A stretch of 64,000 bases of DNA from an uncultured Candidatus Moduliflexus sp. (lineage in GTDB: Bacteria > Moduliflexota > Moduliflexia > Moduliflexales > Moduliflexaceae), in the NCBI GenBank assembly GCA_964602655.1, contig CAZRSF010000017.1, forward strand, positions 24,116-88,115, in the 5' to 3' direction. Shown piece after piece: positions 820-64,000 of the stretch; the first letter of the stretch is position 1; each line of letters opens with the position of its first letter. The notes under the pieces were generated by a model that saw only the letters and a program-made list of their open reading frames with translations, searched no databases and was not told where the DNA came from. The position numbers were made by a program, and so were the translations under genes.

Positions 820-3800
820 TTATTGTGCCTGCCCAATGCGAGGATCAGATGCCAGAATATCATCGCAGATTGCACGATCTTCCACGCTGAGGATTGGGGT
901 ATTTTTCAGGTAATTTTTCACAAAACCGCATAATTTTTCGAATTGCGTTTGCCAATCCAAACGAATATCCCAAAACCTGATCGAGCCATCTTTGGCTGAA
1001 GATACCAGCATATTTCCATCTGGAAAGAACGCAAGACCAAAGACTTGCGCCTGATGTTCATCGAATGAGCCGAGCAAATCTCCATCTGAGACATCCCAAA
1101 TCTTGAGAGTTTGATCCATGCTCGCAGACGCCAATAGTGTTCCATCGGGGCTGAAAGCAACATTTGTCACCCCGCTTCTATGCCCGTTCAGCGTTCGGAT
1201 CAGGGCTTTGCTTTCAACATTCCATAGCTTGATTGTCTCATCCCGACTGGCTGACGCCAGTATCTTCCCATCTGGACTGAACGCAAGATTACGGATATTA
1301 TTCGTATGACCGGACAACGTTGTCAGAAGCTGCTGCGTTTTCACATCCCAAAGATGCAATGCGCCTTCGAATCCACCTGATGCAAGAATTTCCCCATCTG
1401 GACTGAACGTGACCGCATTGACTTTTTTCGCTGGAGAGATTTTGAATGTCGTAAGCAATTTCCGTTCGACAATATTCCAAAGCTTGACAGTTGCGTCATG
1501 ACTTCCCGATGCCAACAACTCGCCGTCGGGACTGAATGCGACGGCAGACACAGAATCGTTATGGCCTGCGAACGTGGCAAGTTCCTTTTTTTCCTCAATA
1601 CCCCAAAGCTTGATCTCTTTGTCTTGGCTTGCTGATGCTAATAATTTTCCATCAGGGCTGAATGCGACCGAAAGGACTGGTTTCTTATGATAGCCAGTAA
1701 AGACGGTTGTCCATGCTTTCTCGTCGAGACGTTTTACCATTACAGTATTGTCATTATGCCCACTGGCAAGGAGCGTTCCATTAGGGTTAAGCGCAATTGC
1801 GGGAATCGAACTGTCGCCGCCTTCGAGCAGGTTTTCTGGTCGGGCTTTTTCAATATTCCAGAATGTTAATTCTCCGCTCGAATCTCCAGAGGCTAACGTC
1901 AGCGGCGATTGAGAAAAGCTGAGACTGAATACGCTGTTTCCGTTGCCTTTCAATGTCGCATACGTTTGCCCTGTTGCGACATCCCAGAGCATGATCGTTG
2001 CGTCGTTACTTGCAGAAGCCACAAGCGATCCGTCCGGGCTAAATTTGACACTATTCACATTGTCTGTATGGGCGGTAAAGGTGTTGAGGAGCGTTCGCGT
2101 TCGCACATCCCAGAGCTTGACGCTCTTATCCCAACTGCCAGACACTAATTTTGTCCCGTCAGGACTGAGAGCAATCCGGGTAATGACATTATTGTGCGCT
2201 TGCAGGGACGTGAATCGGACGGGATTGCTATTCTCCCGGAAGAAGAGATGCCCGGAAGAAGTCGCCGCAATAATGGTCGCATTGTCAGGAGAGAACATCA
2301 CGTTGGTTATTGCGCTTGAAAGGCCATCTTTTTTTGTTGAAAACGTCTCTAAAAGTTTCCTTGAAGGAATGTCCCATACGCGTACAGTTCCATCCCATCC
2401 CCCTGAAAGCAAACGTGTTCCGTCAGCATTGAACGCCACGCTTTCGACATGGACTGTTTCGCCATCTAACGTTTGCAGGATTTGCCCGGAAGCAACATCC
2501 CACAGTTTTACCGTTTTATCATAGCTTCCGGATGCCAGCAACTTACTGTCAGGGTTGAATGCCACGCTGAAAACTTCCGCGTCATGTCCTGTCAATCTGG
2601 CATGAAGCGTTCCATCTGCCACGTTCCAGATACCGATGGTGTTATCCATGCTTGCTGAAGCTAAAAATGCCCCATCAGGGCTGTATTGAAGATATTTGAC
2701 GGTTTTCTGATGACCGGCTATTCGATTCTTTTGCCGGATTCCGCCAAGCACATCTTTGAGTTCGAAGAATGCCTGATATTGCAGCTTTTTCGGAATATTC
2801 GGCTGAGACGCTAACTTGCCAATGCGAATCCAGTCCAGCACAGGCTCAAGGTCGTGCTCTCGTTTCGCCGTGATGTCTTTCGTCTTGTAGATCAGCGTTT
2901 CAAGTTCTGAATTCGGCGACGCTGCGGGCGTTGTGGTGACAGGAGCAGTGAGGCGAGGCCATAATTGCCAGCCACCGACAGCGAGGAGCAGCATGACCGC
3001 GGGAGTGAGAAGCACAAGCGGTTTCGGCTGCCGAAAGACGCGCTTCCCTTTCCGCAATCTCTCGAAATCTTTTCGAACCGAATGACTTGATTGATACCGC
3101 TGTTTCCAATCCGACAGTGTCATCCGTTCAAGAACAAGGCGGCAGCTTCGCGAAATATTCGGGCTGAACTGACGCAATAAGGCTGTGTTCGAGTGCTCTG
3201 TTTCTCCCAGAGATGTCCTGGAAAGCAGCGTCGTCAGCGTCATGCCGAGCGAATAAATATCCGAGGCGGGCATGGCGCGGCCTTCGAACTGCTCGAACGG
3301 CATGTAGCCATACGTGCCGACAATCGTCGAGCCGCCGCCGATGGTGGAATAATCCGCGCAAATTTTCTCGCGTACCGCGCCGAAATCAATCAACACGACG
3401 CGGCCTTCCGGCGTGACGATAATATTGCTCGGCTTGATGTCGCGATGAATAATCGGCGGCGTGAAACTGTGCAGGTAATCAAGAATGTTGAGAATTTCCA
3501 GCCCGACGTCTATGACTTCGCGTTCGGTAAAGTGCGTCCCTTCCGCCAACTTCTGCGCTAAACTTTTTCCGTCAATATACTCCTGCACAAGATAGAACTG
3601 CACATCTTCGCCGCTTTCCACGCTGAAAAAATCAAGATGTTTGGGAATCTGCGGATGATCTGACGTTTTGAGGATATTGGCTTCACGTTCGAACAGTTCG
3701 TAGGTTTTCCACTCATCAAGTTTGCGAAATGACAAACATTTAATCGCGCAACATTGATTTGTTTGCGTGTCAAGAGCGCGATACGTCGTCGCAAACCCGC

Positions 3801-3849
3801 CGCGCCCTAAGATGTCTTGAAGCTCGTAGCGATTATTCAACAGCATCAT
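820..3849 (-). CDS. Serine/threonine protein kinase with a central transmembrane segment and C-terminal WD40 repeats
   Basis: The N-terminus has Hanks-type kinase motifs (GRGGFATTY…AIK, HRDIKPSNII, DFG). A hydrophobic segment follows, then more than 12 WD40 units with WD/GH-x-WD spacing (LASAS.D.T..LW). Confidence 0.9.
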   Translation of the reverse strand: MMLLNNRYELQDILGRGGFATTYRALDTQTNQCCAIKCLSFRKLDEWKTYELFEREANILKTSDHPQIPKHLDFFSVESGEDVQFYLVQEYIDGKSLAQKLAEGTHFTEREVIDVGLEILNILDYLHSFTPPIIHRDIKPSNIIVTPEGRVVLIDFGAVREKICADYSTIGGGSTIVGTYGYMPFEQFEGRAMPASDIYSLGMTLTTLLSRTSLGETEHSNTALLRQFSPNISRSCRLVLERMTLSDWKQRYQSSHSVRKDFERLRKGKRVFRQPKPLVLLTPAVMLLLAVGGWQLWPRLTAPVTTTPAASPNSELETLIYKTKDITAKREHDLEPVLDWIRIGKLASQPNIPKKLQYQAFFELKDVLGGIRQKNRIAGHQKTVKYLQYSPDGAFLASASMDNTIGIWNVADGTLHARLTGHDAEVFSVAFNPDSKLLASGSYDKTVKLWDVASGQILQTLDGETVHVESVAFNADGTRLLSGGWDGTVRVWDIPSRKLLETFSTKKDGLSSAITNVMFSPDNATIIAATSSGHLFFRENSNPVRFTSLQAHNNVITRIALSPDGTKLVSGSWDKSVKLWDVRTRTLLNTFTAHTDNVNSVKFSPDGSLVASASNDATIMLWDVATGQTYATLKGNGNSVFSLSFSQSPLTLASGDSSGELTFWNIEKARPENLLEGGDSSIPAIALNPNGTLLASGHNDNTVMVKRLDEKAWTTVFTGYHKKPVLSVAFSPDGKLLASASQDKEIKLWGIEEKKELATFAGHNDSVSAVAFSPDGELLASGSHDATVKLWNIVERKLLTTFKISPAKKVNAVTFSPDGEILASGGFEGALHLWDVKTQQLLTTLSGHTNNIRNLAFSPDGKILASASRDETIKLWNVESKALIRTLNGHRSGVTNVAFSPDGTLLASASMDQTLKIWDVSDGDLLGSFDEHQAQVFGLAFFPDGNMLVSSAKDGSIRFWDIRLDWQTQFEKLCGFVKNYLKNTPILSVEDRAICDDILASDPRIGQAQ

Positions 3850-3891
3850 CCGCCTCCGCTGCCGCTGTGTACTTTTTTACGAAATTATGCG

Positions 3892-5085
3892 TTATTCTTT
3901 TTTCTCTGGGATGGCAGGCGTTTTCAGGCTGACCAATTCTGTCAGAAGTTGATTGAAACCGCTATACACATGCAGCGTTTGAATCTGCTCGGTCAGTTTT
4001 TCCAGCGTTTCCAACTCTTTCAGCCGCATGAGCGTCGGGCTGTCTTCCATCAATTTCGCCGTGTTCAGCAGCGAACGGGTCGCAGCGGTTTCTTCGCGGC
4101 GTTTGATCAAATTCGCCTCCGCCAGCTTTTTCGCTTCGATCACTTTATTGACTAATTCCCGCATATCGCCCGGCAGAATCAAATCTTTGACGCCGAGGCT
4201 GCGCAGGTCAATCCCGATTTCCGCCATTTTCGGACGCGCCGTGTTCAAAATCGCCGGATTGATCGCCTCTTTGTCGTCTAATAATTCATCCAGCGTTTTG
4301 CCGCCTACCGCTTCCCGCAAGCCGAATTGTAACTCTTTGTAGAGATGTTCGGTGTAATTCGACACGCTCGTCCGCGCCTTCACCGGATCGGTCACGACGA
4401 ACCAGCAGGTCAGCGTGATACGCAAGCTGATGCGGTCTTTCGTCAGCAATTCCTGGCCGGAAATATCGGTTTGCTGCAAGCGCGTGTCAATCGTTTCGCA
4501 GCGAATATCGCGCCCGAATTTCCAGAAACCATACACGCCCGGCGGCAGCGTCCGCTCCAATTTCCCATTCACGAACAACAGCCCGACAGACGCTTCAGGA
4601 ACAATCTGGCAAAGAAACGAGGTCGGATTTTTTATGCGCATAAACTGCTGCAATTTTTCCGCTGGAATCTCATACGAATCGGAAATATCCATCAACTCTA
4701 ACGAGAGCGTATGAAACGCCTTCCAGTAGAGCTTGCGCGTTGCAGGCAAAACAATTGTAGAAAAATGGCCGTCTTCGAATAACATCCCGACTTGCTGATC
4801 CAACACGTCTGTCGCGAAAAAATGCTGCGCGACAATTTCGGGATATTCCTTACGCAGCATATCGGCGAGAGGGCTGTTAAATTCCAGCGAGTTCACGTCA
4901 TACACATCATACGTAAGGTCGCCAAGCGGATTCGGAAAATAATAGACGCCAGGCAGCAACACCTGAAGCAGCCGTCCCTGCCGAAAAACTAACGCGCGTT
5001 CATGTGCCGCAACGGTGATCTCTTCCCGCATCAGCAGCTTATTGACAAGCGAATACAATGATTTGATCATAATGTGACCTCTCAA
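3892..5085 (-). CDS. SPFH/Band-7 domain protein (slipin/flotillin-like)
   Basis: The translation contains an SPFH core (…ISGQELLTKDRISLRITLTCWFVVTDPVKA…) followed by a coiled-coil C-terminus. The true start may be the internal Met at 5070. Confidence 0.65.
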   Translation of the reverse strand: MRGHIMIKSLYSLVNKLLMREEITVAAHERALVFRQGRLLQVLLPGVYYFPNPLGDLTYDVYDVNSLEFNSPLADMLRKEYPEIVAQHFFATDVLDQQVGMLFEDGHFSTIVLPATRKLYWKAFHTLSLELMDISDSYEIPAEKLQQFMRIKNPTSFLCQIVPEASVGLLFVNGKLERTLPPGVYGFWKFGRDIRCETIDTRLQQTDISGQELLTKDRISLRITLTCWFVVTDPVKARTSVSNYTEHLYKELQFGLREAVGGKTLDELLDDKEAINPAILNTARPKMAEIGIDLRSLGVKDLILPGDMRELVNKVIEAKKLAEANLIKRREETAATRSLLNTAKLMEDSPTLMRLKELETLEKLTEQIQTLHVYSGFNQLLTELVSLKTPAIPEKKE

Positions 5086-5089
5086 TAAG

Positions 5090-5116
5090 CCTCACAGGTT
5101 TTTAAAACCTGTGAGG
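5090..5116. repeat. REP-like palindrome, family 1 (CCTCACAGGTTTT-TAAA-AACCTGTGAGG); other copies at ~10474-10504 and ~43766-43796
   Basis: A perfect inverted repeat is visible in the sequence. Three near-identical copies occur in the window, all intergenic. Confidence 0.8.
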
Positions 5117-5398
5117 TTTGGAAAAGAAGGGGAAAACTGAACGCCTCACAGCATTAAACGCGGTCTCCGGCTTCAGGATGGCAGATGTGCCTGTATTACG
5201 GTGCGAATCGTTCATGCGTCGCCGCTGCCGAAACAACGGCTCAACATGCGCGACGCCGCGCCGTTCAAGGCCATACCGTCATCCGGTATCCGCCGGAGCG
5301 CAGGGCGTCAATTCTGTCCGGCGCAGCCGGTTGACCGAAACTTGCCCGGCCTTCCAGCCCGCCGCTGAGACGTTCAGCATCCCCTGGTAAAGGAATTT

Positions 5399-5470
5399 GG
5401 GACAGGGCTCGAACCTGTGAACTGAGCGGTATTAGCGCTCTGCTCTAACCAACTGAGCTACCCATGGTGG
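5399..5470 (-). tRNA. tRNA-like gene, probably degenerate (pseudo-tRNA)
   Basis: The reverse complement reads TAGCTCAGTTGGTTAGAGC (D-arm), GAGCG-CTAATAC-CGCTC (anticodon arm), ACAGG-TTCGAGC-CCTGT (T-arm), CCCA. Only 4 bp of acceptor stem can pair, and the anticodon loop gives the non-standard AAT anticodon. This is consistent with a decayed Met/Ile-type tRNA. Coordinates are accurate to about ±3. Confidence 0.4.
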
Positions 5471-5494
5471 CGAGCGTTCTAACCATCTGAACTA

Positions 5495-5532
5495 TCCGGT
5501 TGCCCGGAGCGGGACTCGAACCCGCGACCTCT
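5495..5532 (-). pseudogene. tRNA 3'-half fragment: variable hairpin, T-arm (GCGGGTTCGAGTCCCGC) and acceptor 3' strand TCCGGGC-A, with no matching 5' half
   Basis: The reverse complement reads …CGCGAGAGGTCGCGGGTTCGAGTCCCGCTCCGGGCAACC. It is followed directly by another D-arm-like fragment (GGATAGTTCAGATGGTTAGAAC). I found no complementary 5' acceptor strand within 400 nt. Confidence 0.4.
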
Positions 5533-5810
5533 CGCGTGGCGGAAATGTCCGTTTCGGCATCGGCACGCAAAGACTCAATTCGCAGAATCTCCGCGCCAGC
5601 GAGGCATGTAGAACCCCAACTTTTGACGCCTGAACGTTGGTGTGACACTTCCGATTTAAAGAGATAAAAAAGAATGGAAAATCTGTCAAGCGTTTCTTGA
5701 GAGAAACCACAAACGGTCAGGGCAAACGCATCTCAATAGGTGATTTGAGGGCGTGTTCAGCGCACACCCCGATTCATCGGGGGGTGTTGGAACGACCGGA
5801 CGCCAGCAAG

Positions 5811-5830
5811 CACCGCTTCAGCGGGTTTTT
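5811..5830 (+). terminator. Intrinsic-terminator-like hairpin (CCGCTTCAGCGG + GTTTTT) inside a symmetric hairpin-rich element
   Basis: A GC hairpin followed by a T-tract is visible on the plus strand. The reverse-complement hairpin CCGCTGAAGCGG lies 25 nt downstream. Confidence 0.4.
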
Positions 5831-5980
5831 CGTCGGACGGGACACCGCTGAAGCGGTTCGGGGGGAGACAGGAACGTGTCCCACACCCCGATGAATCGGG
5901 GTGTGGGCTCAACCCATGCCTGTCACGCCTTCACATCAAGCATGTAGATGCGTTTGCCCTGCACAAACGGTCATTATTTA

Positions 5981-6061
5981 CCACGAAACACACGAAAATA
6001 TGGAGAACGTCTTCATCGGATGAATAATTTGATTTTTTCGTGTATTTCGTGTGTTTCGTGG
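5981..6061. repeat. Small element bounded by 17-bp inverted repeats CCACGAAACACACGAAA / TTTCGTGTGTTTCGTGG; a related copy lies at ~8054-8118
   Basis: Perfect terminal inverted repeats flank about 47 bp of AT-rich DNA. A second element with CACGAAAGGCACGAA / TTCGTGCCTTTCGTG arms follows the OsmC gene. Confidence 0.6.
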
Positions 6062-6110
6062 TGTGATAAAAAGCTTGACGGATTCCAGAATGATTTCTAA
6101 ACGATGTTGC

Positions 6111-6974
6111 ATGATGTCGCCGTATCAACCAATTCAGCCAATGCTCAACCTGCGCCAGCAGCCGGGCTTTCGCAAGCAGAATGTCGCGCCGGATAGTCGC
6201 CTGCGCCCGTATATTTTCTGCTACTGGACGATGTATTCGGTCATGCCGCTTCAGATGCCCTGCGAAATACATGGCGTGCCGGACGGTTGCATTGATATTT
6301 TTCTGCATTGCCATCATTTTCGAACGACCTATCTGCTCGGTATTACGGAATCGCCAGTATTCCTGCCGGTTCCTGAACGCATTCAATATTTCGGCATCCG
6401 ATTTCTTCCCGGGAAAATTCATCATTTCTTTTCGCTGCCGCCTGCCGAACTGTATGATCGCCTGATTGCCGCGCATGACATCATCGGTCGAACGTTTCAA
6501 GAGATCGAAGAACAATTGCTGTTCGCGCGGTCGTTTCAAGACCAGATTGCGATTGTCGAGGCGCTGTTATTCAGGCTGCTGGCTCGCCGCACCTATCAGC
6601 CTGACGCGCGGTTCATGCGGATGCTGCGCCAGATTTACGCGCAGCACGGACAGATATCCGTTGAGCAGCTTGCGAAGCAGGAGCAGATCAGTGCCCGCCA
6701 TCTCCATCGCATGTTCGAGGCATTCTTAGGGATCGGCGCGAAAAAATTCTCGCGCATCATCCGCTTTCAGCATATTCTTGGGCAAATGCTCTCCGATAGG
6801 CCAAACCCTTTCATTGATCTGGCGTTAGATCACGGCTATTTCGATCAGGCGCATTTCATTAATGATTTTCGGCAGATGTTCGGAAAAGCGCCGTCGTCAG
6901 CCATCGTATCGCTTCCAGGCACACCATTTCCCGCCAAAATGGGAAACGTAGTTTCTGCAATACCAGAAGTATGA
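6111..6974 (+). CDS. AraC-family transcriptional regulator
   Basis: The C-terminus has an AraC-type double HTH (…LAKQEQISARHLHRMFEAFLGIGAKKFSRIIRFQHILGQML…LALDHGYFDQAHFINDFRQMFGKAPS). The start is uncertain: the ORF opens at a GTG at 6051 inside the repeat, so I chose the ATG at 6111. Confidence 0.8.
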   Translation: MMSPYQPIQPMLNLRQQPGFRKQNVAPDSRLRPYIFCYWTMYSVMPLQMPCEIHGVPDGCIDIFLHCHHFRTTYLLGITESPVFLPVPERIQYFGIRFLPGKIHHFFSLPPAELYDRLIAAHDIIGRTFQEIEEQLLFARSFQDQIAIVEALLFRLLARRTYQPDARFMRMLRQIYAQHGQISVEQLAKQEQISARHLHRMFEAFLGIGAKKFSRIIRFQHILGQMLSDRPNPFIDLALDHGYFDQAHFINDFRQMFGKAPSSAIVSLPGTPFPAKMGNVVSAIPEV

Positions 6975-7114
6975 GATTCAGTTTAAGGGCGTTCCCTGGC
7001 TGATTCCTGTAAAAATCGGTTGTGCAGGCTGATGGCATGGGGTTCGCATAGTAAATGATAGAAATTTATTGTCCATCATGTCATTTCACACATACCAACA
7101 TCAGGAGAATTATT

Positions 7115-7405
7115 ATGAAATTTTTTCAATGGTTATCTCTCTCGACAGTCTTCGGAATGTTTTTTTTCAGCGGTTGCGCGCCGTCAGTTTCTGTCACTCC
7201 CGCCGGACAGGATCGGCAGTATGAAGTCAGCGTATCGTCAAATGAATTCAGCGTCAGCGACACGAACGAATTGATTACGCTCTGGCATGAAAAAGCGCGT
7301 GAGGCGTGTAACGGCGGAAATTATAAGGTTATTACTCGCGATGTCATTCAGAAATCAGAACCGGTAGAGGAAACGTTGATGACAGGAATTATCGAATGTG
7401 AATAA
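7115..7405 (+). CDS. Small lipoprotein, hypothetical
   Basis: The RBS AGGAG lies 8 nt upstream of the ATG at 7115. The protein has a signal peptide with the lipobox FFSGC and is 96 aa long. Confidence 0.55.
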   Translation: MKFFQWLSLSTVFGMFFFSGCAPSVSVTPAGQDRQYEVSVSSNEFSVSDTNELITLWHEKAREACNGGNYKVITRDVIQKSEPVEETLMTGIIECE

Positions 7406-7620
7406 ACGCGGCAATAGATTGAAAAAGCCTGAAAGAAGCTCTTCTTTCAGGCTTTTTGCATTTTCCGTACACATATTTCAGGCATGTCCGATTTTTCCAA
7501 GACAATACAATTTTTTCTCTTATAATTAAAGTATGACAGCTTTTCGCGAGAGAACACATATTCGACGAACAGGTTATTCGCCAACACAGCAAACAATATA
7601 GCAACAGGAGATATTAAATC

Positions 7621-8046
7621 ATGGGCAATCACTTATCAGCCACCGTCACGTTAACCAACGATAAAATGCAATTTGCCGCGTCAACCCGCGCCAACCCGAA
7701 AGTGCAGATGGATTATTTCCCGCCGGTCGGCGACGGTGAGGGCTATACCGGATTGGAAATGCTGCTGATGGCTTTTTGCGGATGCAACGCGTCGTCAATC
7801 GTGTTCCTGCTGCGCCGAATGAATAAGACTGTCGCGGGCTTCACCGTCAATGGCAGCGGAGAGCGCCGCGAACAGCACCCGACCTGCTTTCGGACTATCG
7901 CATTAGAATACATCATCACATCGCCGGATATTGAAGAAAGTGATCTGCAACAAGCGATTCGAATGACAGAAGAAACTTACGGTCCGGTCTGGGCGATGCT
8001 GAAAGGCAATGTCGAAATTACGACGACCTTCCGCGTTCAACGTTAA
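7621..8046 (+). CDS. OsmC/Ohr-family peroxiredoxin-like protein
   Basis: The protein is 141 aa with the OsmC signature region (…GEGYTGLEMLLMAFCGCNASSIV…) and the conserved Cys pair. Confidence 0.8.
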   Translation: MGNHLSATVTLTNDKMQFAASTRANPKVQMDYFPPVGDGEGYTGLEMLLMAFCGCNASSIVFLLRRMNKTVAGFTVNGSGERREQHPTCFRTIALEYIITSPDIEESDLQQAIRMTEETYGPVWAMLKGNVEITTTFRVQR

Positions 8047-8215
8047 TCTTTACGCCACGAAAGGCACGAAAAAGAAACCATAAAAATCTTCGTGCCTTTC
8101 GTGTGTTTTGTGGTTTCGAAAGACGAATTTTGTTGCCTTCCCCTTTGACGCATGTTACGCAATCCGCGTTGTTGTCCGAATTCTGATATATCAAACGAAC
8201 TCAAGGAGCGAATAT

Positions 8216-8776
8216 ATGAGATGGAACAGCCTGTTATGTAGTGTGTTGATGGGGGCGGTTGCGCTGTCCGGGTGCGGCAAAAAAGAGACGCCGCAAGAAC
8301 GCGCGGAGAAAGCGATGGAACAATTGAAGAAAATTTCGGCGTGCGAATTGGTGACGAAAGCCGAGATGGAAGCGATTCTCGGTGTAACGCTCGCCGAGCC
8401 GGACGGCAAGGTTCCCGTGACGAGCGCCCCGCCGATGTGCTCTTATACTGCCGCATCAGAAAACCTGAAAGACTTCCTTTCAGTCACTCTGATGGTATTA
8501 CCTTCATCTGACAGCGACCCGAAAAAAACGTATGACACGTTTCTCAATAGCGAAAACGGACTTCTGAAGCAGATCCCGAACGCGAAGATCGAACCGGTGG
8601 ATGGATTTGGTGGTGCTCCTGCGTTTTGGTATGGAGAAATGCATCAATTGTATGTGTTTACGCCTGACATCGTCCTGAGCGTGACCGGAATGTCGCCCCA
8701 GCAGCCGGAGAAAATAACGCTGGAGACACATAAAAAAATTGCGGAAACCGTCTTGCCGCGCCTGCCGAAAAAATAA
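8216..8776 (+). CDS. Lipoprotein, hypothetical
   Basis: The RBS AAGGAG precedes the ATG at 8216. The protein has a signal peptide with the lipobox LSGC. I recognised no domain. Confidence 0.55.
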   Translation: MRWNSLLCSVLMGAVALSGCGKKETPQERAEKAMEQLKKISACELVTKAEMEAILGVTLAEPDGKVPVTSAPPMCSYTAASENLKDFLSVTLMVLPSSDSDPKKTYDTFLNSENGLLKQIPNAKIEPVDGFGGAPAFWYGEMHQLYVFTPDIVLSVTGMSPQQPEKITLETHKKIAETVLPRLPKK

Positions 8777-8820
8777 ATATTCCAGCCGCGAAATATACGA
8801 AAATATATCGTTATTCAAGC

Positions 8821-8849
8821 CCTGACAGGGTGTAAAACCCTGTCAGGGC
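8821..8849. repeat. REP-like palindrome, family 5 (CCTGACAGGGT-GTAAA-ACCCTGTCAGGG); a variant lies at ~46570-46601
   Basis: A perfect inverted repeat sits between convergent genes. Confidence 0.7.
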
Positions 8850-8856
8850 TTGTGGT

Positions 8857-10320
8857 TCATCTCAGCATTTTTTTGAGTTTGAACGTCAGCATGGCGATAA
8901 ACATGATCGCGTAACGCTGGAAATCGGCGAAGGATTTGATATTCTGCACGACGGTCGGGATTTTGCGCAGCAGCGAAAATTTCTTTTTGGCTCCGGCAAA
9001 ATGGAACATCAATTCGCTGATCTGCCACCAGGTCAATTTGTCCATGTAGAGCGGCACATGCCCTTGCGCGGCAGGCAGCAGCACGACGCGATGATCGTTC
9101 GGATTCGTCCACGAAAAATCTTCCGGGATTTTGCCTTCTTGCCGCGCCCGCTGTTCAAGCTCCGTGCCGGGATAGACATGGGCAATCGCGACGCTGATGT
9201 CGCAGCGGTTTTTCACCTGATCAATAATTGCTATCGTTTCCTGCGCCTCTGCCCACGTTTCGGTGGGATGGCTGAACATGAAAAACGGATTCGGTGTCAC
9301 GCCGTATTCCAGCGCCCAATCAATGAATTGGCGCGCCTGCTCCAATGTCGCCACTTTTTTCACAATTTCCTGCGCCACGCGGTGATTACCGGACTCGATG
9401 CCGAACCCGGCGTAAAACATCCCCGCCTGCGCCATTTTTTCCGTCAATTCCTTTGTCATCAAATCCACGCGGACTTCGCAATACCATTTGATGTCGAGTT
9501 TGCGTTCGATGATCAGGTTGCAGATTTCCGCCGCGCGTTTCGGGTTGTAATTGAAGGTGTCGTCATAAAACCAGATCACTTTTGCGCCGTAGCGATCCAT
9601 GACATGTTCGACTTCTTTCAGCACATTCTCCGGCGTCAGGCCGCGCACGCGCCGCCCCCAGTTGTTCGGCGTGGCGCAGAAGGTGCAGTGAAACGGGCAG
9701 CCCCGGCTCGTCATGATATTCGCCGCCGGTTGCAGCCCTTTGCCCGGCACGTCGAGCTTGAAATTGTATCTGTCGTAGGGAATCAAATGGCGGGCAGGCA
9801 TCGGCAGCGTGTTCAAGTCCGGGATGCGCTGGCGCGGGCTATTTTCGATGATCTGGCCGTTTTCGTAGAATGACAGGCCATCCACTTTGCGTAGCGACTC
9901 CCGCGCTTGCAACGCCTGCGCGAGTTCGACAATCGTGACTTCGCCTTCACCGCTGACGACGCCGTCCACGTAAGGCAAATGGCTCAACGTATCGCGCGCC
10001 GTGCCGGTGAAATGCGGGCCGCCCATCACGACAAACGCTTGCGGGCGGGCGCGTTTGGCGACTTGCGCCAAGCGAAAACTCTGAAACCGATTCTCCGTCG
10101 TCGTGGTAATGCCGATGATGTCGGGTTTGTCGGCCTCGAATTTCTTCGCCAACTCGTCCCACGTCAGGCGCAGCACGTCCGCCGGCACGACTTCCACGTC
10201 AATTTTCTGCTGCTCTAATGCCGCCGCGAGATATAACACGCCTAACGACGGCATGGTCGAGCCATGACTCCAACGCTCGGCGAAATAACCGCCGGGCGGC
10301 AGACATAACATCACTTTCAT
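8857..10320 (-). CDS. B12-binding-domain radical SAM protein (class B radical SAM family)
   Basis: The N-terminus is a cobalamin-binding Rossmann-like domain. The radical-SAM cysteine motif SRGCPFHCTFC is present, and a long C-terminal domain follows. Confidence 0.85.
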   Translation of the reverse strand: MKVMLCLPPGGYFAERWSHGSTMPSLGVLYLAAALEQQKIDVEVVPADVLRLTWDELAKKFEADKPDIIGITTTTENRFQSFRLAQVAKRARPQAFVVMGGPHFTGTARDTLSHLPYVDGVVSGEGEVTIVELAQALQARESLRKVDGLSFYENGQIIENSPRQRIPDLNTLPMPARHLIPYDRYNFKLDVPGKGLQPAANIMTSRGCPFHCTFCATPNNWGRRVRGLTPENVLKEVEHVMDRYGAKVIWFYDDTFNYNPKRAAEICNLIIERKLDIKWYCEVRVDLMTKELTEKMAQAGMFYAGFGIESGNHRVAQEIVKKVATLEQARQFIDWALEYGVTPNPFFMFSHPTETWAEAQETIAIIDQVKNRCDISVAIAHVYPGTELEQRARQEGKIPEDFSWTNPNDHRVVLLPAAQGHVPLYMDKLTWWQISELMFHFAGAKKKFSLLRKIPTVVQNIKSFADFQRYAIMFIAMLTFKLKKMLR

Positions 10321-57520: not shown

Positions 57521-58123
57521 TTAATAAGGAGAACGGGCGGAGTCCGGAGGACAGACAGACTCGCGCTGCTTCATGAAAATCGGCGGTGTGGTTGGGTCAA
57601 GGACAAAGACATCCGACCAGAAAATTGTTGGAATACTCGGTGTGGCATAGCGAATCACCGGCCCATCGTCATACAGCCCGACCGCGTCGGCAGCGATTGC
57701 GCCGCGTTGCAGCAAAACGTTCTCAAGACGAGCGTCTGAATCCAGCGTGAGCGTGAGACGTACCGGCGTATCTGCTTGAAACGCGATATGCGACGGCAGC
57801 GACGCGTCTGTTTCGTCCGCGATGCCCGAAAAGAAACCAGTGTCGCTGCTCTGCGTTTCTGTGTAGGTCAACAGATAGTCTCCCGCTTCAGGAATGTTGA
57901 CGCATAATAATTCGGCGCGCGCCTGCCACTCGAATTCCTGAGACGCGGCGTCCCCTGCCGCGAAACCGGACAGCGGATACGCGCCCCCCGATAAGGGCGA
58001 GATCGGCGCTTGTTCGTCATAATCCAGCGTGTTGCATCCCGGATTGACGGCAAGCAGCATCGCAAGCGCGATCCATTGGAATCGTTTTTGCCAAACACAG
58101 GTAGTTCTGTTGATATCGGTCAT
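57521..58123 (-). CDS. Lipoprotein, hypothetical
   Basis: The protein has a signal peptide with the lipobox NPGC. Confidence 0.5.
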   Translation of the reverse strand: MTDINRTTCVWQKRFQWIALAMLLAVNPGCNTLDYDEQAPISPLSGGAYPLSGFAAGDAASQEFEWQARAELLCVNIPEAGDYLLTYTETQSSDTGFFSGIADETDASLPSHIAFQADTPVRLTLTLDSDARLENVLLQRGAIAADAVGLYDDGPVIRYATPSIPTIFWSDVFVLDPTTPPIFMKQRESVCPPDSARSPY

Positions 58124-58200: not shown

Positions 58201-58380
58201 ATAGGAGAAATGATGGAAGAGCGTTTACCGAATATTCATCCTGACGAAGTATTAGAAGAAGAGTTTTTACAACCGTTGCATATGTCAGCGTCGCGGTTAG
58301 CGCAGGCGATCCGGCTGCCGCAACGCCGATTCGAAAAGCAGCTTACGCGAATTGACCATTTTCAGAGGATGCCCGGCTGA
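58201..58380 (+). pseudogene. HigA-like (XRE-HTH) antitoxin gene remnant, truncated or frameshifted after ~50 aa
   Basis: The translation MEERLPNIHPDEVLEEEFLQPLHMSASRLAQAIRLPQRRFEKQL… matches the HigA N-terminal pattern (IHPGEILxEEFLxPLGLS…LA.ALGV) but ends at 59 aa without the C-terminal helices. No toxin gene is adjacent. Confidence 0.5.
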
Positions 58381-58539
58381 TTTATTTCTCCGCGTCAAGT
58401 CCCCACACGCGCCCATTATACGACACGCGGGCGACCGGCCTGCCGTTTTCGGTCAACTCCCCGCCCGACCAATTCCCGCCGCCGAGGTCGTACTGTTCGA
58501 TATAAGCGCGGCAGGCGGCGCTGATTTCTTTGAATTCGA

Positions 58540-59790
58540 TCACAATTTCTTTATATCTGGAATTCCGGCTCTGCTGTTATGGGAATATAATTTTTGCAGA
58601 AAATCGTTTTTGTATGGATCATCAAAACTACAAATAAAACTTAATACAATTTCTTTTCCTTGAAATAAAAATATATCTTTATACTCCATCTGTTTAGGTG
58701 TTTTAGGATATTTTCTCATTTCATTAAATTTATCTAATTTATCTTTGGGAAGAGATTTGGACAATTTATCTATCACCTCTTCAGAAAGATACTGTTGTAT
58801 AATGATTTTGGATTTAAAAATTGCCACAAAATCAATCAGATTATTTTCTATAGATAACGCTGGGAAAAGATGCCAGGAAGGTTCTTTGAATTCTTTAATG
58901 CTTTTCCTCGCTTCTGATTTTAAGGCTAACTCTTGATTATCGAATTGCTGCAATTCAATAAGTTCAAGATATTTCGTGCTGCCTTGTTCAATGTCGCAAG
59001 CGGGGGTGATGACAATCCCATATTTAAGAATCTTTCCAGTATCGAATCTTACAATATCGCCATTACGAATCATTGTTGCATCTGATTCGTAATAAAGCAT
59101 TTTATTCAGGATGTATCTTCGTTTTTCATCTTTCCCAATGCTCTTAGCAAAATCTCGCGCATTTCGTAAAAGTTGCTTCAAATCACCAGTAAATCTGGTA
59201 TTTTTGACCAACTCTCGATGAATAAGATTTAAGATAAAATCATTACTCCAATCTATATTTTCTTCTTCTCCAATAAGAAATTTGAGGAGAGCAGCAATAT
59301 CCTGATTTGGAAGTTGCATTAAATCGAAAAAAACTTTTTCGATTCCGCCTCTGATGACTTGACGATATACATTGCTGATTTGGGCTGTTAGCGATTGTTG
59401 AAACCATTGAGAAATTTTTTGTTCAAGGATAATTGAAGAGACATTTTCTTTAGAAATTGCAGTAATCAATGCTTTCGGGTAAGAAATTTCATCTCTTAAA
59501 ACGCTTTCATCATAATTTGAAATATGATTTGACCAAATAAAGACGGGAATAAAATATCTGTTTTGCAAATGCTTTAAAACTAAGAGACTCAACAAATGGT
59601 TCTGTTCTTCTAAATACCAGTCTAAAATAACCACATCAAAGTTGATGCCAGAATCAAGAATTGTAATCGCGTCATCTTTTGTTCCACAGCAGTGAAGAGT
59701 AATCTGGTTTTGTTGAAAGTCTTCACGTAATGTTTCTTCAAAATCAAGATAGTCATCATCAATAAGTAGCACTCGCTGTACGTTATTCAT
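58540..59790 (-). CDS. Response regulator: N-terminal REC domain fused to an uncharacterised ~300-aa C-terminal output domain
   Basis: REC hallmarks are present (VLLIDDD…, phospho-acceptor context DVVILDWYL, PVFIWS). GGAG lies 9 nt before the ATG at 59790. The start overlaps the upstream kinase stop (ATGAATAA). Confidence 0.7.
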   Translation of the reverse strand: MNNVQRVLLIDDDYLDFEETLREDFQQNQITLHCCGTKDDAITILDSGINFDVVILDWYLEEQNHLLSLLVLKHLQNRYFIPVFIWSNHISNYDESVLRDEISYPKALITAISKENVSSIILEQKISQWFQQSLTAQISNVYRQVIRGGIEKVFFDLMQLPNQDIAALLKFLIGEEENIDWSNDFILNLIHRELVKNTRFTGDLKQLLRNARDFAKSIGKDEKRRYILNKMLYYESDATMIRNGDIVRFDTGKILKYGIVITPACDIEQGSTKYLELIELQQFDNQELALKSEARKSIKEFKEPSWHLFPALSIENNLIDFVAIFKSKIIIQQYLSEEVIDKLSKSLPKDKLDKFNEMRKYPKTPKQMEYKDIFLFQGKEIVLSFICSFDDPYKNDFLQKLYSHNSRAGIPDIKKL

Positions 59791-61921
59791 TATGATTCTC
59801 CGTAAATGTGATTTTGAACGATGCTCCTTGTAATAAACCGATTTCTGGATAATCATCTTTCGATACAAGGGCAATATCCCAATTCTTCTCCTCTAAAATT
59901 TCTTTAACAATATACAAACCAAGCCCCCGTCCATCCTCAATTTTTGTAGTGAAAAACGGTTCGAAAATTTTATCTTTATACCGCGAAATCACTCCAGAAC
60001 CACTATCCGAGACAAACACAGAAGATGTTTTGGCATCAAGAATAATCCGAATACTACGTTTATCCAGTTCGGATTTACGCGACAACCAGAAAATTGCGTT
60101 ATCAATCAGATTGTTAAAAATCTGCATACAAGAGCCTTCTCGCATTTTTACGATAAAACTTTCTCCCTGCATTTCAATCTGAATAGATTCTTTTTCTAAC
60201 CAACGCTCTTGTAAAGCTATCGTATTTTCAATAATCTTCCGGATCTCTAATTCTTTTTCATTTGCAACCTTTTTAACGTAAAACATTGGACCTAAAAGAC
60301 GAATATCATTTCGTAATGCTTCTAAGGAGCTATAGAGCAAATCGAGTTCTTTTTTGATCTTCGGGGATAATGGATCAAGAAATTTTTTGAGTCTTCCTAA
60401 CGCATCAAGAGCGCCACGCACCAGACGAGCAAATTCATGCGTAAATCGTTCAGCGGCTAAACCTGTCCCTGCAAGACTAAACAATGTCTCTTTTTCCTGT
60501 TTCTGTGATTCAAAAGACTCTTTTACTTCTTCCTCAAATGTTGTGATCTCATTCACAGAATTCTCAAGAATCGCGGCAACTTTGACATTATTTTCTTTGT
60601 GACTTTCTGCAAGCTTATCTGCTAAAGTTGAAAGTTTTGTTTTCGCCTGTTGAAGAGGTTCACTATTATAATCCTGTTTTTTTTCTTTTTTCGGCCTATC
60701 TGCTAAACGCTCGTGCTCTAACACTTGTATTGTAGCAAGAACAAGCTCTCGAAATTGATGAAATGCAAGGTTTTCAATTAATCCTTCACGATTGGTCTTA
60801 TCTTTTAAAAGTTGATTTTCGATCTGGTTGACCTCAATCATGCCAATTATTGTTTTATTGTCAATCTTTCCTGTCGGATCTTGCACTCTTCTTTTATCCA
60901 ATTCAAGCCAATCATCACCTCTCTCTCCGTAAGGAAGAATTCGTATTCCATCCCTATAAATACTCACTCCACACAACTCTTCAATATCTTTTTTAATCAC
61001 CCCTGATTTTTGCAACCATTCAGGAGATTTATCATAATTATGCAAATTAACAATAAAGCTACCACAAATAAGTTCTTCTTGTATTTTGAGGGAATATTCT
61101 TTAATTAGATTAATTTGCCCATTTTTTTGAGTTGGTTTATATCCTGGAACAAAAAAATAATATTCAAACTCAAGTACACCTTGAGTATCTACTATGCCCC
61201 AAAATTTATAATGAGCTTTTTCTAAAATGTCAGAGATTTCAAGGTTTCCATATTTCAGAAATTCTTCTGGACAATCTTCAATTTTCAAAGTGACATCAAA
61301 ATCAGTTGCTCCTTTGAATGGACTTTTCATTCTTTTTAAAGTATTAGCAACACGTTTTATATCAGTCTCAGTCCAATTCGATTTCAAATGAGAAATCTCT
61401 AATAATACTCCTGATTCTTCCTGTTGAAATTCTATTAATGATCTTTCTGCATAACCTATTTCAATATCGTTCAGGTCTTTTCCTTCCACATCAAATTCTT
61501 GCCAGTCAATAGAAACTACTAACTCAATATTAGAATCTTTTACTTTAGAAATCAACGTCAGTGTATTTCCGATCTGTTGAGCTGCAAATCTTCCCACTCC
61601 CTTTTCCCCTAATGGAAGCCTACCCAGTAGTGTTCTTTCTTGTTTGGCTTTTTGCTTTTCTTTATGACCTGAGGCAGGATTCATCCACTTCGTAAGAAAA
61701 GTTTCTGTATCCATCCCACAACCATCATCTCTAATAGTGATCTTTGCGCTAGAAGTATTTAACGCAACCATACTCACCTGAACAGAGGTTGCATCAGCAT
61801 CGTAACTATTTTTAACGAGTTCTACAAGCCCAACAGAAGCGTCCTTGATCAGTTGTTCTCCAAGAATCTGGATTAATCTCGCTTTCGGGGTAAAAGCCTG
61901 TTTGCCTGTTTTCATATTCAT
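59783..61921 (-). CDS. Fusion protein: N-terminal MORC/HATPase_c_3-type GHKL ATPase, central linker, C-terminal histidine kinase (DHp-like H-box + HATPase_c)
   Basis: The N-terminus reads …LVELVKNSYDADAT…ITIRDDGCGMD… (GHKL Bergerat fold). The C-terminus has a candidate H-box (ERFTHEFARLV), an N-box (QIFNNLIDNAIFW), G1 (DSGSGV) and G2 (GRGLGLYIVKE). The start codon directly abuts the HerA stop (TAAATG). Confidence 0.8.
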   Translation of the reverse strand: MNMKTGKQAFTPKARLIQILGEQLIKDASVGLVELVKNSYDADATSVQVSMVALNTSSAKITIRDDGCGMDTETFLTKWMNPASGHKEKQKAKQERTLLGRLPLGEKGVGRFAAQQIGNTLTLISKVKDSNIELVVSIDWQEFDVEGKDLNDIEIGYAERSLIEFQQEESGVLLEISHLKSNWTETDIKRVANTLKRMKSPFKGATDFDVTLKIEDCPEEFLKYGNLEISDILEKAHYKFWGIVDTQGVLEFEYYFFVPGYKPTQKNGQINLIKEYSLKIQEELICGSFIVNLHNYDKSPEWLQKSGVIKKDIEELCGVSIYRDGIRILPYGERGDDWLELDKRRVQDPTGKIDNKTIIGMIEVNQIENQLLKDKTNREGLIENLAFHQFRELVLATIQVLEHERLADRPKKEKKQDYNSEPLQQAKTKLSTLADKLAESHKENNVKVAAILENSVNEITTFEEEVKESFESQKQEKETLFSLAGTGLAAERFTHEFARLVRGALDALGRLKKFLDPLSPKIKKELDLLYSSLEALRNDIRLLGPMFYVKKVANEKELEIRKIIENTIALQERWLEKESIQIEMQGESFIVKMREGSCMQIFNNLIDNAIFWLSRKSELDKRSIRIILDAKTSSVFVSDSGSGVISRYKDKIFEPFFTTKIEDGRGLGLYIVKEILEEKNWDIALVSKDDYPEIGLLQGASFKITFTENHNE

Positions 61922-63571
61922 TTACTCCGTATGTTCACGTTTACTTGAGCAAGGCCGCATACTTGTCATAATCGGATGCTGAAATTGAGGCGAAACAATT
62001 ATACAATTTCCTTGTCCTAAAGTAGGGACTTCATCCCAAACAGATTCATTAACGCTACCAGCCGATGTTTTTAATACTTTGAGGTTATGACTGCCGGTTG
62101 TCTGGTGAATAACTTTAGTATTACACAATTCATAAATTTCATCGGGCAGGTGTGATGGCTGTTGAGAGATAAAACAGAGTCCTAACCAACGTTTTCTTCC
62201 CCGTCGAGCGACTTCACGTAAGCGATCCAGCAGAGCTTCCATTTTGCTGGCATTTTCTCTACTGACAAAGGTATGCGCTTCTTCGATGACAATTAAGGTC
62301 GGCGGTAAATTCTCGTCATGGATTTTTTGATCAAACACCTTTCTTAGAAGATAAGCGATTACAATATTATTAACGCGGACATTATAGGAATTACTTAAAT
62401 CAATTACGCTTACTTTTCCTGGTCTGATTAATGCCGTAGGATCAAGATATTCTTCCGCTAAATCAAAGATGCCAAACCTTTTTAGGCGTTCTAATAATCT
62501 TTTAACAACAAACCATGAAGATTTATCTGCCCCATTTGCTGAATTTATATGATCATTTACAGATTTAACTACATCTTTTAACGTAAGATCAGGGTAATCC
62601 TCATCTTCAAGAAATTCATTCTCTTCGAGAGCTTTCCATTGATTAGAAGATGACTTTTTCTTTTGCGCTTTATCTCCATTACAAATCCGATCTCTCACTT
62701 CATTCCATGCACTAATAAATCGGTCTTCCTGATTTTCATTCATCCCCATAATCGCTGATAATTCATAGGGGGAAAGACTTCCAAATGGAATTCCGAATTC
62801 TATAGCATCTTTTCTTTTTGTCTCTGTTGCCAAAGGAAAATATACCTGAAAGTCATTCAACCCTTTGGCAGTAATTTTAAAACGTTCTGCAATTTTTTGA
62901 AATTCTTTGTTTTTAAGAATTTCTTCAGATGGATAATCCATTGAGATATACTCACCTTCTACATCAAGAACAATTACTGCCCAACCTGCTGAACTTGCCT
63001 CTTCAATAAGTACTTGTGAGGAATTTGTTTTTCCAGACCCAACAGTTCCGAATATTCCTGTATTTCTTGGAAGAACTGATTTTTTATTACCATCGAAATG
63101 AACTCGAATATCGCCATACCCACTAAGTTGGCCGAGATACATGTTTCCTTGCAGACGAAGCAAGTCTTCTATTTTTTCAGGCGGTAATGGAAATATAGCA
63201 GACTTTGGGCGTGGTCTCGTTTGAACGCTTGATAAATTCGCAGAAGTAAGGTTAAAAAGGCCGAGCAGTTCTACAAAACAAATACCATGATAATCTGGCA
63301 AAAATCCAATTTTACCAGCCTGAATAATTGCCGTTTTAGCAAACGCAGATTCACGGCTCACAGCATCAGGCGTATAAAAAGGGCCTTTAACAATCCGTGC
63401 CAAATAAAAATGCTCTTCTTTACTGGATTCAACAATGACATATTTCCCTCTGAAGATTTCCTTAATTTTATCAAAAGGAACTCTGATTTCCACTTCGTTA
63501 TTCGACCCGCCAGGCGCTGAATCAAAATTAACAAATCCAATTGCGTGTTCTTTTGCAAAACCTGTTTCCAT
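61922..63571 (-). CDS. herA: HerA-like FtsK/HerA-superfamily ATPase (HAS-barrel N-domain + ATPase core)
   Basis: Walker A GTVGSGKTN, Walker B LIVIEEAHTF and the HerA-type ISQQPSHLPDEIYELCNTKVIHQ motif are present. AAGGAG lies 8 nt before the ATG at 63571. Confidence 0.8.
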   Translation of the reverse strand: METGFAKEHAIGFVNFDSAPGGSNNEVEIRVPFDKIKEIFRGKYVIVESSKEEHFYLARIVKGPFYTPDAVSRESAFAKTAIIQAGKIGFLPDYHGICFVELLGLFNLTSANLSSVQTRPRPKSAIFPLPPEKIEDLLRLQGNMYLGQLSGYGDIRVHFDGNKKSVLPRNTGIFGTVGSGKTNSSQVLIEEASSAGWAVIVLDVEGEYISMDYPSEEILKNKEFQKIAERFKITAKGLNDFQVYFPLATETKRKDAIEFGIPFGSLSPYELSAIMGMNENQEDRFISAWNEVRDRICNGDKAQKKKSSSNQWKALEENEFLEDEDYPDLTLKDVVKSVNDHINSANGADKSSWFVVKRLLERLKRFGIFDLAEEYLDPTALIRPGKVSVIDLSNSYNVRVNNIVIAYLLRKVFDQKIHDENLPPTLIVIEEAHTFVSRENASKMEALLDRLREVARRGRKRWLGLCFISQQPSHLPDEIYELCNTKVIHQTTGSHNLKVLKTSAGSVNESVWDEVPTLGQGNCIIVSPQFQHPIMTSMRPCSSKREHTE

Positions 63572-63584
63572 AGTTCTTCTCCTT

Positions 63585-64000
63585 CTACTTTTGACGTAAG
63601 GAATCTTCTGGCATTTCGGAAAGAAACTCTCCTTCTTGCGCAAGTTTAAACTCAACAATATTATTAAAATCTGTTGCCTTAAACAAAGTTGAACAGAGGT
63701 TATCCGCATAATCAATTAATAACGGAAATCCTTTTTCTCTTTGAAACATTGCATCTCTGGCAATAATTCTTGCGGCCTGTTCGAAATAATCCTGATGTGC
63801 ATGGAAAACATAAGGACGCTGAGAGATTTTAATGATTCCAATAAGAATTTTAGAAGCTTCTTGCTTTAAAAAGTGAGTCATTCTAAGCAATTCTTCTTCT
63901 CGCCATTTGTCTTTTGCCATAAAATCTTCATTTCTCAATAATTCCATTCCAACATTTGTATGCTTTAATAAAAAATATTCTCCTGAATTTAATGCCATAC
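63585..64000 (-). CDS. Partial CDS (C-terminal ≥138 aa) of an unknown protein immediately upstream of the HerA-like gene; the 5' end lies outside the window
   Basis: The ORF is open to the window edge and ends 13 nt before the HerA start. I could assign no domain from the visible part. Confidence 0.5.
   Translation of the reverse strand, partial: MALNSGEYFLLKHTNVGMELLRNEDFMAKDKWREEELLRMTHFLKQEASKILIGIIKISQRPYVFHAHQDYFEQAARIIARDAMFQREKGFPLLIDYADNLCSTLFKATDFNNIVEFKLAQEGEFLSEMPEDSLRQK

Follow-up and report, generated by a model that had tools for sequence, protein, structure and literature searches.

One end of a 64,000-nucleotide stretch of DNA from an uncultured Candidatus Moduliflexus sp. 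(contig CAZRSF010000017.1, positions 24,116 to 88,115; this whole stretch is referred to as the window) carries a copy of a conserved, horizontally spread gene cassette built around a HerA-family ATPase. The window holds the 3' part of this operon, which was acquired horizontally and has five or, more probably, six genes; their order would be an HhH-GPD or Vsr gene, a C5 methylase, a NurA-like nuclease, HerA, a histidine kinase with a GHKL-type sensor, and a receiver protein designated REC-X. On balance the cassette is favoured to be a restriction-modification (R-M)-like defence, most likely one that restricts unmethylated foreign DNA. A more elaborate proposal, put forward tentatively and judged somewhat short of probable, is that it represents an undescribed R-M-like family in which NurA–HerA destruction of unmethylated DNA is wired to a His-Asp phosphorelay, with a GHKL ATPase as the DNA-state sensor and a receiver that carries a new effector domain.

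In a survey of the open reading frames (ORFs) of the 64-kb window, all of the genes in question lie on the minus strand. In the direction of transcription they are the 3' part of the NurA-like partner gene (63585 to 64000, about residues 221-358 of 358), which is cut by the window end; the gene for a HerA-family hexameric translocase/ATPase of 549 residues (61922 to 63571); the gene for a 712-residue protein combining GHKL and histidine kinase domains (59783 to 61921); and the gene for REC-X, a 416-residue protein of the response-regulator type (58540 to 59790). The partner gene stops with TAG at 63585-63587 and is open up to position 64000, so that 137 complete codons and the stop are visible. 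Direct reading of the sequence gives a spacer of 13 nt, AAGGAGAAGAACT (63572 to 63584, minus strand), between the partner stop and the HerA start, and this spacer holds a Shine-Dalgarno sequence. The next junctions are tighter still: the kinase ATG comes directly after the HerA stop codon (0 nt), and the kinase and REC-X genes overlap by 8 nt. An earlier note, made from the window sequence alone, had described a truncated ORF upstream of HerA, and this description stands, the ORF being on the same strand, with its stop 13 nt from the HerA ATG, and open to the window edge. The spacing of 13 nt given there is also right as a number, but it is counted to the HerA ATG, and the ribosome-binding site lies inside the 13 nt and not beyond them. 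The two-component module that the note had placed beside HerA corresponds to the kinase gene (59783-61921) and the receiver gene (58540-59790).

The earlier note had also proposed extending the sequence past the window and annotating the complete upstream ORF with hidden Markov models. An exact look-up of the HerA protein recovered a public contig of 10,231 bp, L001, which is 100% identical to the window across 8,562 common bases and reaches 1,669 bases past position 64000. These bases complete the partner gene (L001:1009-2085, 358 residues) and bring into view, immediately upstream of it, a gene for a C5-cytosine DNA methyltransferase, the end of which overlaps the partner start by 34 nt. The contigs recovered by look-up of the partner and of its 99% twin all end within the methylase gene. 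Because the methylase precedes the partner, the reading shifts from a HerA–effector pair plus two-component module to a modification-linked, restriction-like cassette; the module that the note named is retained, but the C5 methylase beyond the window changes the overall interpretation.

The methylase, the gene for which is cut by the end of L001, matches PF00145 (1.2e-51) and the PADLOC DrmMII model (6.7e-132) and has the motifs GGPPCQ, ENVPG, QSRKR and GNAVPP (IV, VI, VIII and X). Many related loci have a Vsr gene immediately before the methylase, and in others an HhH-GPD (endonuclease III/Mig-like) gene lies beside it. Enzymes of the Vsr and HhH-GPD types repair T:G mismatches that arise from deamination of 5-methylcytosine (5mC), and the linkage of such repair genes argues that the methylase truly makes 5mC in the host. 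An active-looking C5 methyltransferase, as judged from its visible part, together with linked T:G repair, as found in related loci, is the combination of a type II-like R-M system. A near-identical second copy of the cassette (L041:1-660 aligned with L001:383-1042, just past window position 64000) differs from the L001 copy at 2 of 358 residues of the NurA-like protein, 14 of 549 of HerA, 32 of 712 of the kinase and 34 of 219 of the C5 methylase. About 30 of the 34 methylase differences fall in the variable stretch after motif VIII, the target-recognition region, and those of HerA, all 14 of them, are confined to residues 213-384, in the segment that separates Walker A from Walker B, a pattern that suggests fast divergence of specificity-related parts.

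The HerA protein, which reads from the ATG of METGF (gene 63571 to 61922), has a central domain that matches Pfam DUF87 (E 2e-24; 87.4 bits against a cut-off of 23.2), a match to HerA_C (1.4e-11), and intact Walker A (GSGKT, residues 178-182) and Walker B (VIEEAH, residues 428-433) motifs, all in keeping with its original designation as a HerA-like ATPase. Its matches among PDB sequences are, in order, the HerA proteins of Thermococcus kodakarensis (2.4e-20) and Saccharolobus solfataricus (4.7e-17), several anti-phage HerAs and then, weakly, TdpA (4.9e-5). PADLOC and NCBIfam models of antiphage HerA match the C-terminal part of the protein, and the PADLOC mad8 model matches it at 1.4e-19. None of the NCBIfam equivalog cut-offs is reached: CedD scores best (110.9 bits against 600), helicase_HerA gives 89 bits against 970, and HerA_antiphage_2 gives 57 against 850. 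A Pfam TrwB_AAD_bind match (3.4e-7) is confined to the P-loop stretch, residues 169-211, and weak NCBIfam matches to VirB4/TraC/TraD and CedD are all far under their cut-offs. Since the TrwB match covers only the P-loop and the equivalog scores fall so far short, the ATPase is, as judged from its sequence, a distinct HerA subfamily and no conjugation ATPase. The possibility of a conjugation ATPase family, which the earlier note had raised as a refutation of its own call, fails in that, among proteins of solved structure, the ATPase is closest to the HerA proteins of archaea, and its likeness to coupling proteins does not extend outside the P-loop stretch.

The partner, a NurA-type nuclease that has diverged strongly, escapes the family models. 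The complete sequence matched no Pfam family even at E <= 1 and no PADLOC model, and neither the single sequence nor a 55-sequence profile matched any PDB chain; the 137-residue fragment visible in the window likewise gave no match in Pfam, PADLOC, NCBIfam or PDB sequence searches. It is nevertheless a member of a coherent family: of 5.8 billion proteins 221 are related to it, each either nameless or annotated as hypothetical, and the best 120 of the 221 are 46-75% identical. The identity of the partner came from its fold. Structural comparison matched the predicted protein to S. solfataricus NurA (2ygk_B; score 17.3, 261 residues aligned), the NurA of a HerA–NurA cryo-EM complex (9x1l_G; 13.9), TdpB of the TdpAB complex (8wet_G; 13.7), Deinococcus NurA (7f6d_G; 11.8) and Thermotoga TM1739 (1zup; 11.7), with endonuclease V and PIWI domains (12.5 and below, most at or below 12) interleaved with the last two NurA entries. 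The fold is thus the RNase H-like fold of the NurA family, and the invariant residues of the partner, D81 (GIDGT, first strand), E117 (directly after strand 3), H171, E178, D303, D317 and D320, are compatible with an RNase H-like nuclease. For S. solfataricus NurA, catalysis is assigned to D58, E116 and D133, and K202 and Y298 are close by (PMC3326311).

Genomic context agrees with the fold. The partner and HerA form a NurA-herA gene pair, 13 nt apart in the window, and HerA is the next gene in 28 of 28 loci with room for it in the Genome Taxonomy Database (GTDB) scan described below. In a distant sibling cassette of identical gene order (L039/L040), the partner slot is occupied by a 619-residue protein that does match Pfam NurA (28.9 bits against a cut-off of 21). 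On this modelled fold and pairing, the protein is very probably the NurA-fold partner of HerA. Of the identities proposed in the earlier note, NurA is the one borne out, by the fold and by the Pfam-NurA-positive protein of the sibling cassette; SIR2, DUF4297 and Cap4 were rejected, Pfam and PADLOC being blank and the fold being that of NurA, and the cassette is accordingly no SIR2 or DUF4297 HerA system. The further suggestion that the upstream ORF could prove to be an unrelated housekeeping gene or to lie on the opposite strand also fails, for it is on the same strand, 13 nt away, and HerA follows it in every related locus with room.

The third protein begins as a MutL/MORC/Hsp90-type GHKL ATPase (HATPase_c_3, 1.9e-20, residues 32-150), and a profile of its N-terminal 470 residues matches MutL, PMS2, Hsp90 and MORC2/3 in the PDB. 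Its N-terminal 180 residues also match NCBIfam restrict_BbrUII (2.7e-20; 72 bits against a cut-off of 550) and PADLOC REase_II models. The C-terminal half is that of a histidine kinase: a dimerization and phosphoacceptor (DHp) region has an FTHEF motif with His495 in an HEF H-box (Pfam HEF_HK at 0.0076, below threshold), the catalytic domain matches HATPase_c (3.7e-17, residues 598-706), and in a PDB sequence search residues 465-680, covering both domains, match the ThkA kinase 3a0r (1.4e-11). All of the boxes expected of a two-component kinase are present, namely the H-box histidine (THEF, 494) and the N (DNA, 607), G1 (DSGSG, 639), F (FEPFF, 653) and G2 (GRGLGL, 664) boxes. The middle region is strongly conserved, with YRDGIRILPYGE at 322 and DKTNREGL at 374. 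Residues 318-383 are the most invariant stretch of the protein, GVSVYRDGIRILPYGE.GDDWL.LD.RR ... VEINQ.EN..L.DKTNREGLIEN, belong to no Pfam family, and are kept even in the L036 and L039 variants; possibly they form an S5-like transducer or a DNA-contact element.

REC-X has the residues of a receiver domain, an acidic pair (D11/D12), the phospho-acceptor D57, S87 and K114, after which come a middle domain made of helices and, at the C-terminus, a domain of mixed alpha/beta structure. Invariant positions in this later part include G244-D245, P263/C265-D266, P392-Y393-K394 and R407/G409/P411, and E279 and K326 are nearly so. An exhaustive phmmer search found the output region in just 55 of 1.84 billion cluster representatives. 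In all full-length relatives it starts near residue 120 of a protein of about 390-410 residues, and a Pfam scan of ten distant relatives found a receiver domain in five and another N-terminal domain in none.

The distribution of the cassette was traced by a scan of GTDB, in which an alignment of the partner was run against one genome per species (185,579 species genomes) and neighbouring genes were assigned by tblastn with the five cassette proteins, hmmsearch and Pfam scans. The partner family was found in 31 loci. In each of the 28 with room, HerA is next to the partner on the same strand, one of the 28 being a decayed copy. The C5 methylase is adjacent in all loci in which partner identity is at least 44% (by tblastn or Pfam, and in L022 by ORF size and position). 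With contig look-ups added to the GTDB loci, 25 related loci have the GHKL kinase after HerA, and in 20, L001 included, REC-X comes next. The order methylase–NurA-like–HerA–kinase–receiver, with genes packed or overlapping, thus recurs in about 20 loci from many bacterial phyla. Bacterial carriers belong to the Bacteroidota (including the cultured Hydrotalea flava CCUG 51397), Ignavibacteria, Chloroflexota, Acidobacteriota, Verrucomicrobiota, Desulfobacterales and Eremiobacterota and include a gammaproteobacterium; archaeal carriers belong to the Woesearchaeota, Methanosarcinales, Nitrosopumilaceae/Thaumarchaeota and Bathyarchaeota.

Divergence runs parallel among the four non-methylase proteins, the methylase being tied to them more loosely: in one clade, identities of the NurA-like protein, HerA, kinase and REC-X are 57-68, 65-68, 55-60 and 34-44%, and in the next 47-51, 54-56, 40-44 and 26-28%. 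The phyletic spread is patchy and crosses the boundary between bacteria and archaea, with bacterial and archaeal copies 44-46% identical. No relatives of the partner were found in IMG/VR viral contigs. The composition of the window copy is island-like: GC is 0.32-0.38 in the cassette versus 0.46-0.55 in the adjoining genes of the window, which are housekeeping genes (DUF6901, a PilT-type ATPase, alanyl-tRNA synthetase, a DHH/DHHA1 protein and MreB).

Variants of the cassette separate its parts. The most distant NurA-like/HerA pairs (L031:11026-12210, L032:11041-12174 and L035:10737-12077, from Eremiobacterota and Bathyarchaeota, 32-34% identity) are without kinase, REC-X and C5 methylase, and each adjoins an N6_N4 DNA methylase (PF01555), so that the constant association is that of a DNA methylase with the NurA-like protein and HerA. 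L035 also encodes, next door, a type IIG Eco57I-like enzyme. Five archaeal-type loci with the kinase (L024, L025, L027, L028 and L030, from four archaeal and one gammaproteobacterial metagenome-assembled genomes, or MAGs) are without REC-X, and in these the G1 box of the kinase is degraded (NNGPTL, NNGSKI, DNARPI) and the F box altered, while the N-terminal GHKL motifs and the HEF motif are intact. The DxGxG G1 box is kept in 19 of 20 loci with REC-X, and confinement of G1 decay to loci that lack REC-X is as expected if kinase activity matters only with REC-X as its target. In light of this pattern, and of the intact kinase boxes and receiver residues, the two proteins may constitute a phosphorelay. 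A third arrangement, in L036-38 (positions 2366-9209, found through the distant REC-X relative P0238), reads ABC/SMC-type ATPase–C5 methylase–HhH-GPD–GHKL kinase–REC-X, with an ATPase of the SMC_N, AAA_23 and AAA_15 families and with neither NurA nor HerA; this operon indicates that the methylase/kinase/REC-X set can pair with a different motor. Some copies are decayed. In L034:8001-8717, residues 7-165 of the NurA-like protein are joined to the last 96 residues of HerA, and in L003/L015:11081-12717 HerA is split into three ORFs in one MAG contig and is intact in the Logan contig L004 of the same element; either pseudogenisation or assembly error would account for these copies.

From these features a working scheme can be drawn. 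The methyltransferase would mark host DNA with 5mC, and Vsr or HhH-GPD would mend the T:G mismatches that result from its deamination; self-marking is proposed because the methylase motifs are intact and mismatch-repair genes are linked. The NurA-like protein and HerA would assemble into a translocase-nuclease that threads and degrades DNA free of the mark, as TdpA and TdpB do for phosphorothioate-free DNA, a degradative role being suggested by the fold of the partner, its pairing with HerA, its invariant acidic residues and the Walker motifs, which are intact. ATPases of the MutL/MORC type form dimers when they bind ATP and act as clamps on DNA. The GHKL head of the kinase, which is of this type, would sense the state of DNA or of the complex, leading to autophosphorylation of His495 and transfer to Asp57 of REC-X, whose output would then either license the nuclease or be an effector in its own right, perhaps one of abortive infection. 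The analysis itself establishes which genes are present and in what order, their folds, the intactness of the catalytic motifs, the conservation of the cassette and its island-like composition; a role in defence, a complex of the NurA-like protein with HerA, the component that would read the methyl mark, and the direction and consequence of phosphotransfer are the steps that we infer.

Several observations weigh against this scheme. Of the catalytic acids of the partner, only D81 and E117, at the first two positions, are placed confidently, the third being uncertain. The partner misses the Pfam NurA model PF09376, and hhalign links it only weakly to a NurA family that Pfam does recognise (probability 10.6%, E 0.003), with LNpGEY and GFPLLIDYAD of the partner, both encoded inside the window, set against LxEGEY and AFPVGLDIVDK of that family. 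For the output region of REC-X, comparison with Pfam, with the sequences and structures of the PDB and with viral structure models gave no fold or catalytic signature, and the role assigned to REC-X is therefore a guess. No known defence-system model fits the cassette, PADLOC (2.0) being blank for both the partner and REC-X. Finally, the NurA-like/HerA pair occurs with a methylase and no kinase (L031, L032, L035), and the methylase, kinase and REC-X occur without NurA and HerA (L036-38), so that the cassette could be two systems that merely travel together.

This last point is the substance of the strongest alternative, in which two independent defence modules lie side by side, a methylase with the NurA-like protein and HerA on the one hand and a separate, Detocs-like pair of GHKL kinase and REC-X on the other. 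The occurrence of each half without the other, with an N6_N4 methylase in the case of the distant NurA-like/HerA pairs, is what such an arrangement predicts. Against it, the order is fixed and genes abut or overlap in about 20 loci of several phyla, the NurA-like protein, HerA, kinase and REC-X diverge congruently between clades, and the kinase is still linked to the NurA-like protein and HerA in loci that lost REC-X. In L036-38, too, a C5 methylase and a motor ATPase accompany the kinase pair, and this suggests a need for such partners. Two separate modules are for these reasons considered unlikely, although they retain appreciable weight.

A housekeeping role for the pair is much less probable. 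The fold and the closest solved relatives are those of archaeal repair NurA and HerA, and the pair might act in end resection and repair, as in archaea, Deinococcus and Thermus, and lie near a methylase by chance. However, the pair always adjoins a DNA methyltransferase and sits in a low-GC island amid housekeeping genes; the family is sporadic, with 31 loci in 185,579 species genomes and 221 relatives in 5.8 billion proteins; bacteria and archaea have copies that are 44-46% identical; and the neighbouring genes are those of defence or of mobile elements. Least credible of all is that the ATPase is a coupling protein of conjugation or type IV secretion, or another DNA-transfer part, since the TrwB_AAD_bind, VirB4/TraC/TraD and CedD matches that would favour it are limited to the P-loop or lie far under their cut-offs, whereas the DUF87/HerA match is far stronger (87 bits), secretion or relaxase genes were found neither in the window nor in related loci, and the partner is a NurA-fold nuclease.

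The preferred reading, restriction of unmethylated DNA by the NurA-like protein and HerA, has a direct precedent in TdpAB, a HerA-like/NurA-like pair linked to a modification gene. Phosphorothioate on self DNA reportedly blocks translocation and cleavage by TdpAB. In PMC12914056, which cites An et al. 2025 (Nat Chem Biol), tdpABC is described as a phosphorothioate-based system. The cassette resembles TdpABC of thermophiles (TdpAB, PDB 8wet) in combining a modification gene with a HerA-like (TdpA) and NurA-like (TdpB) restriction pair. It differs in that TdpC, which forms phosphorothioate, is replaced by a C5 methylase, or in distant variants an N4/N6 methylase; the partner has no sequence similarity to TdpB; a GHKL-histidine kinase and receiver effector are added; and the hosts are mesophilic Bacteroidota, Ignavibacteria, Chloroflexota and others. 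The archaeal and bacterial HerA–NurA end-resection complex (2ygk, 9x1l, 7f6d) is what the partner matches best in structure and the ATPase best in sequence, and it is likewise encoded by an adjacent gene pair, but the cassette has no Mre11/Rad50 linkage, is island-borne and methylase-linked, and has a partner that the Pfam NurA model does not recognise. The SIR2-HerA and DUF4297-HerA systems also encode an effector directly upstream of a HerA-family ATPase, whereas here the effector has a NurA fold and the cassette has its own methylase and two-component module.

Detocs is a defensive two-component system with a TPR-repeat sensor, a buffer receiver and a PNP-type nucleosidase output. Like it, the cassette joins a cytoplasmic histidine kinase, in a presumed defence context, to a receiver protein that ends in a putative effector in place of a DNA-binding domain; unlike it, the cassette has a MutL/MORC-type GHKL sensor, no buffer receiver, an output in REC-X that is not of the PNP type, a methylase/NurA/HerA operon and no PADLOC match. 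MADS comprises eight genes, with mad6, mad7 and mad8 as the core and including an N6 methyltransferase and a specificity subunit (bioRxiv 10.1101/2023.03.30.534895). It too is a multigene methylation-based defence operon with a kinase and a DUF87-type ATPase, and its mad8 model matches the cassette HerA, but no other mad model matches a cassette protein and the methylase here is of the C5 type, so that the cassette falls outside MADS. Membership in MADS, Detocs, SIR2-HerA or DUF4297-HerA was rejected on these differences in components. Iyer et al. 2008 (PMC2292703) place GHKL (MORC/paraMORC) ATPases alongside helicases and nucleases in the operons of R-M systems and make no mention of HerA, NurA or receiver domains. 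The kinase shares its GHKL head with these ATPases and with the BbrUII/HgiDII restriction-enzyme family, but the match covers the head alone, far under the cut-off, and in the cassette the head is fused to a complete histidine kinase. In kind, the cassette would be a defence based on modification, with NurA–HerA as its restriction module, and would be unusual in its added phosphorelay and in two unannotated protein families.

At the other border of the cassette, the low-GC region ends at about 58540, where GC goes from about 0.33 to about 0.5. Two small ORFs without Pfam matches lie at this edge, at 58210-58380 on the plus strand and at 58382-58543 on the minus strand; an assignment of the former as a HigA-like fragment was dropped for want of Pfam support. 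A 200-residue ORF (57521-58123, minus strand) that belongs to no family lies between the cassette edge and the DUF6901 gene.

No description of the cassette was found in the full-text literature, in which subscription journals were scarcely covered, and an earlier description is possible; comparative-genomics papers (eLife 2020, Biol Direct 2008, NAR 2024, NAR 2026) do not mention it. Two protein families that have had no annotation, the NurA-like partner and the REC-X output domain, emerge from the analysis. The NurA–HerA restriction logic, so far drawn from the phosphorothioate-based Tdp system, would here be combined with base methylation (C5, and N4/N6 in distant relatives) in many bacterial and archaeal phyla, and the main clade, in which a restriction system is coupled to a MutL/MORC-headed histidine kinase and a receiver, offers a testable case of phosphorelay control. 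If the proposal is correct, this would be, as far as was found, the first case of two-component signalling that gates an R-M-type system; the kinase and its receiver would make up a portable module of control, able to serve an ABC/SMC-type ATPase system as well; and the REC-X effector domain would be rare and fused to a receiver wherever the N-terminus could be checked. Experiments are made feasible by a cultured carrier of the cassette, Hydrotalea flava CCUG 51397 (locus L007).

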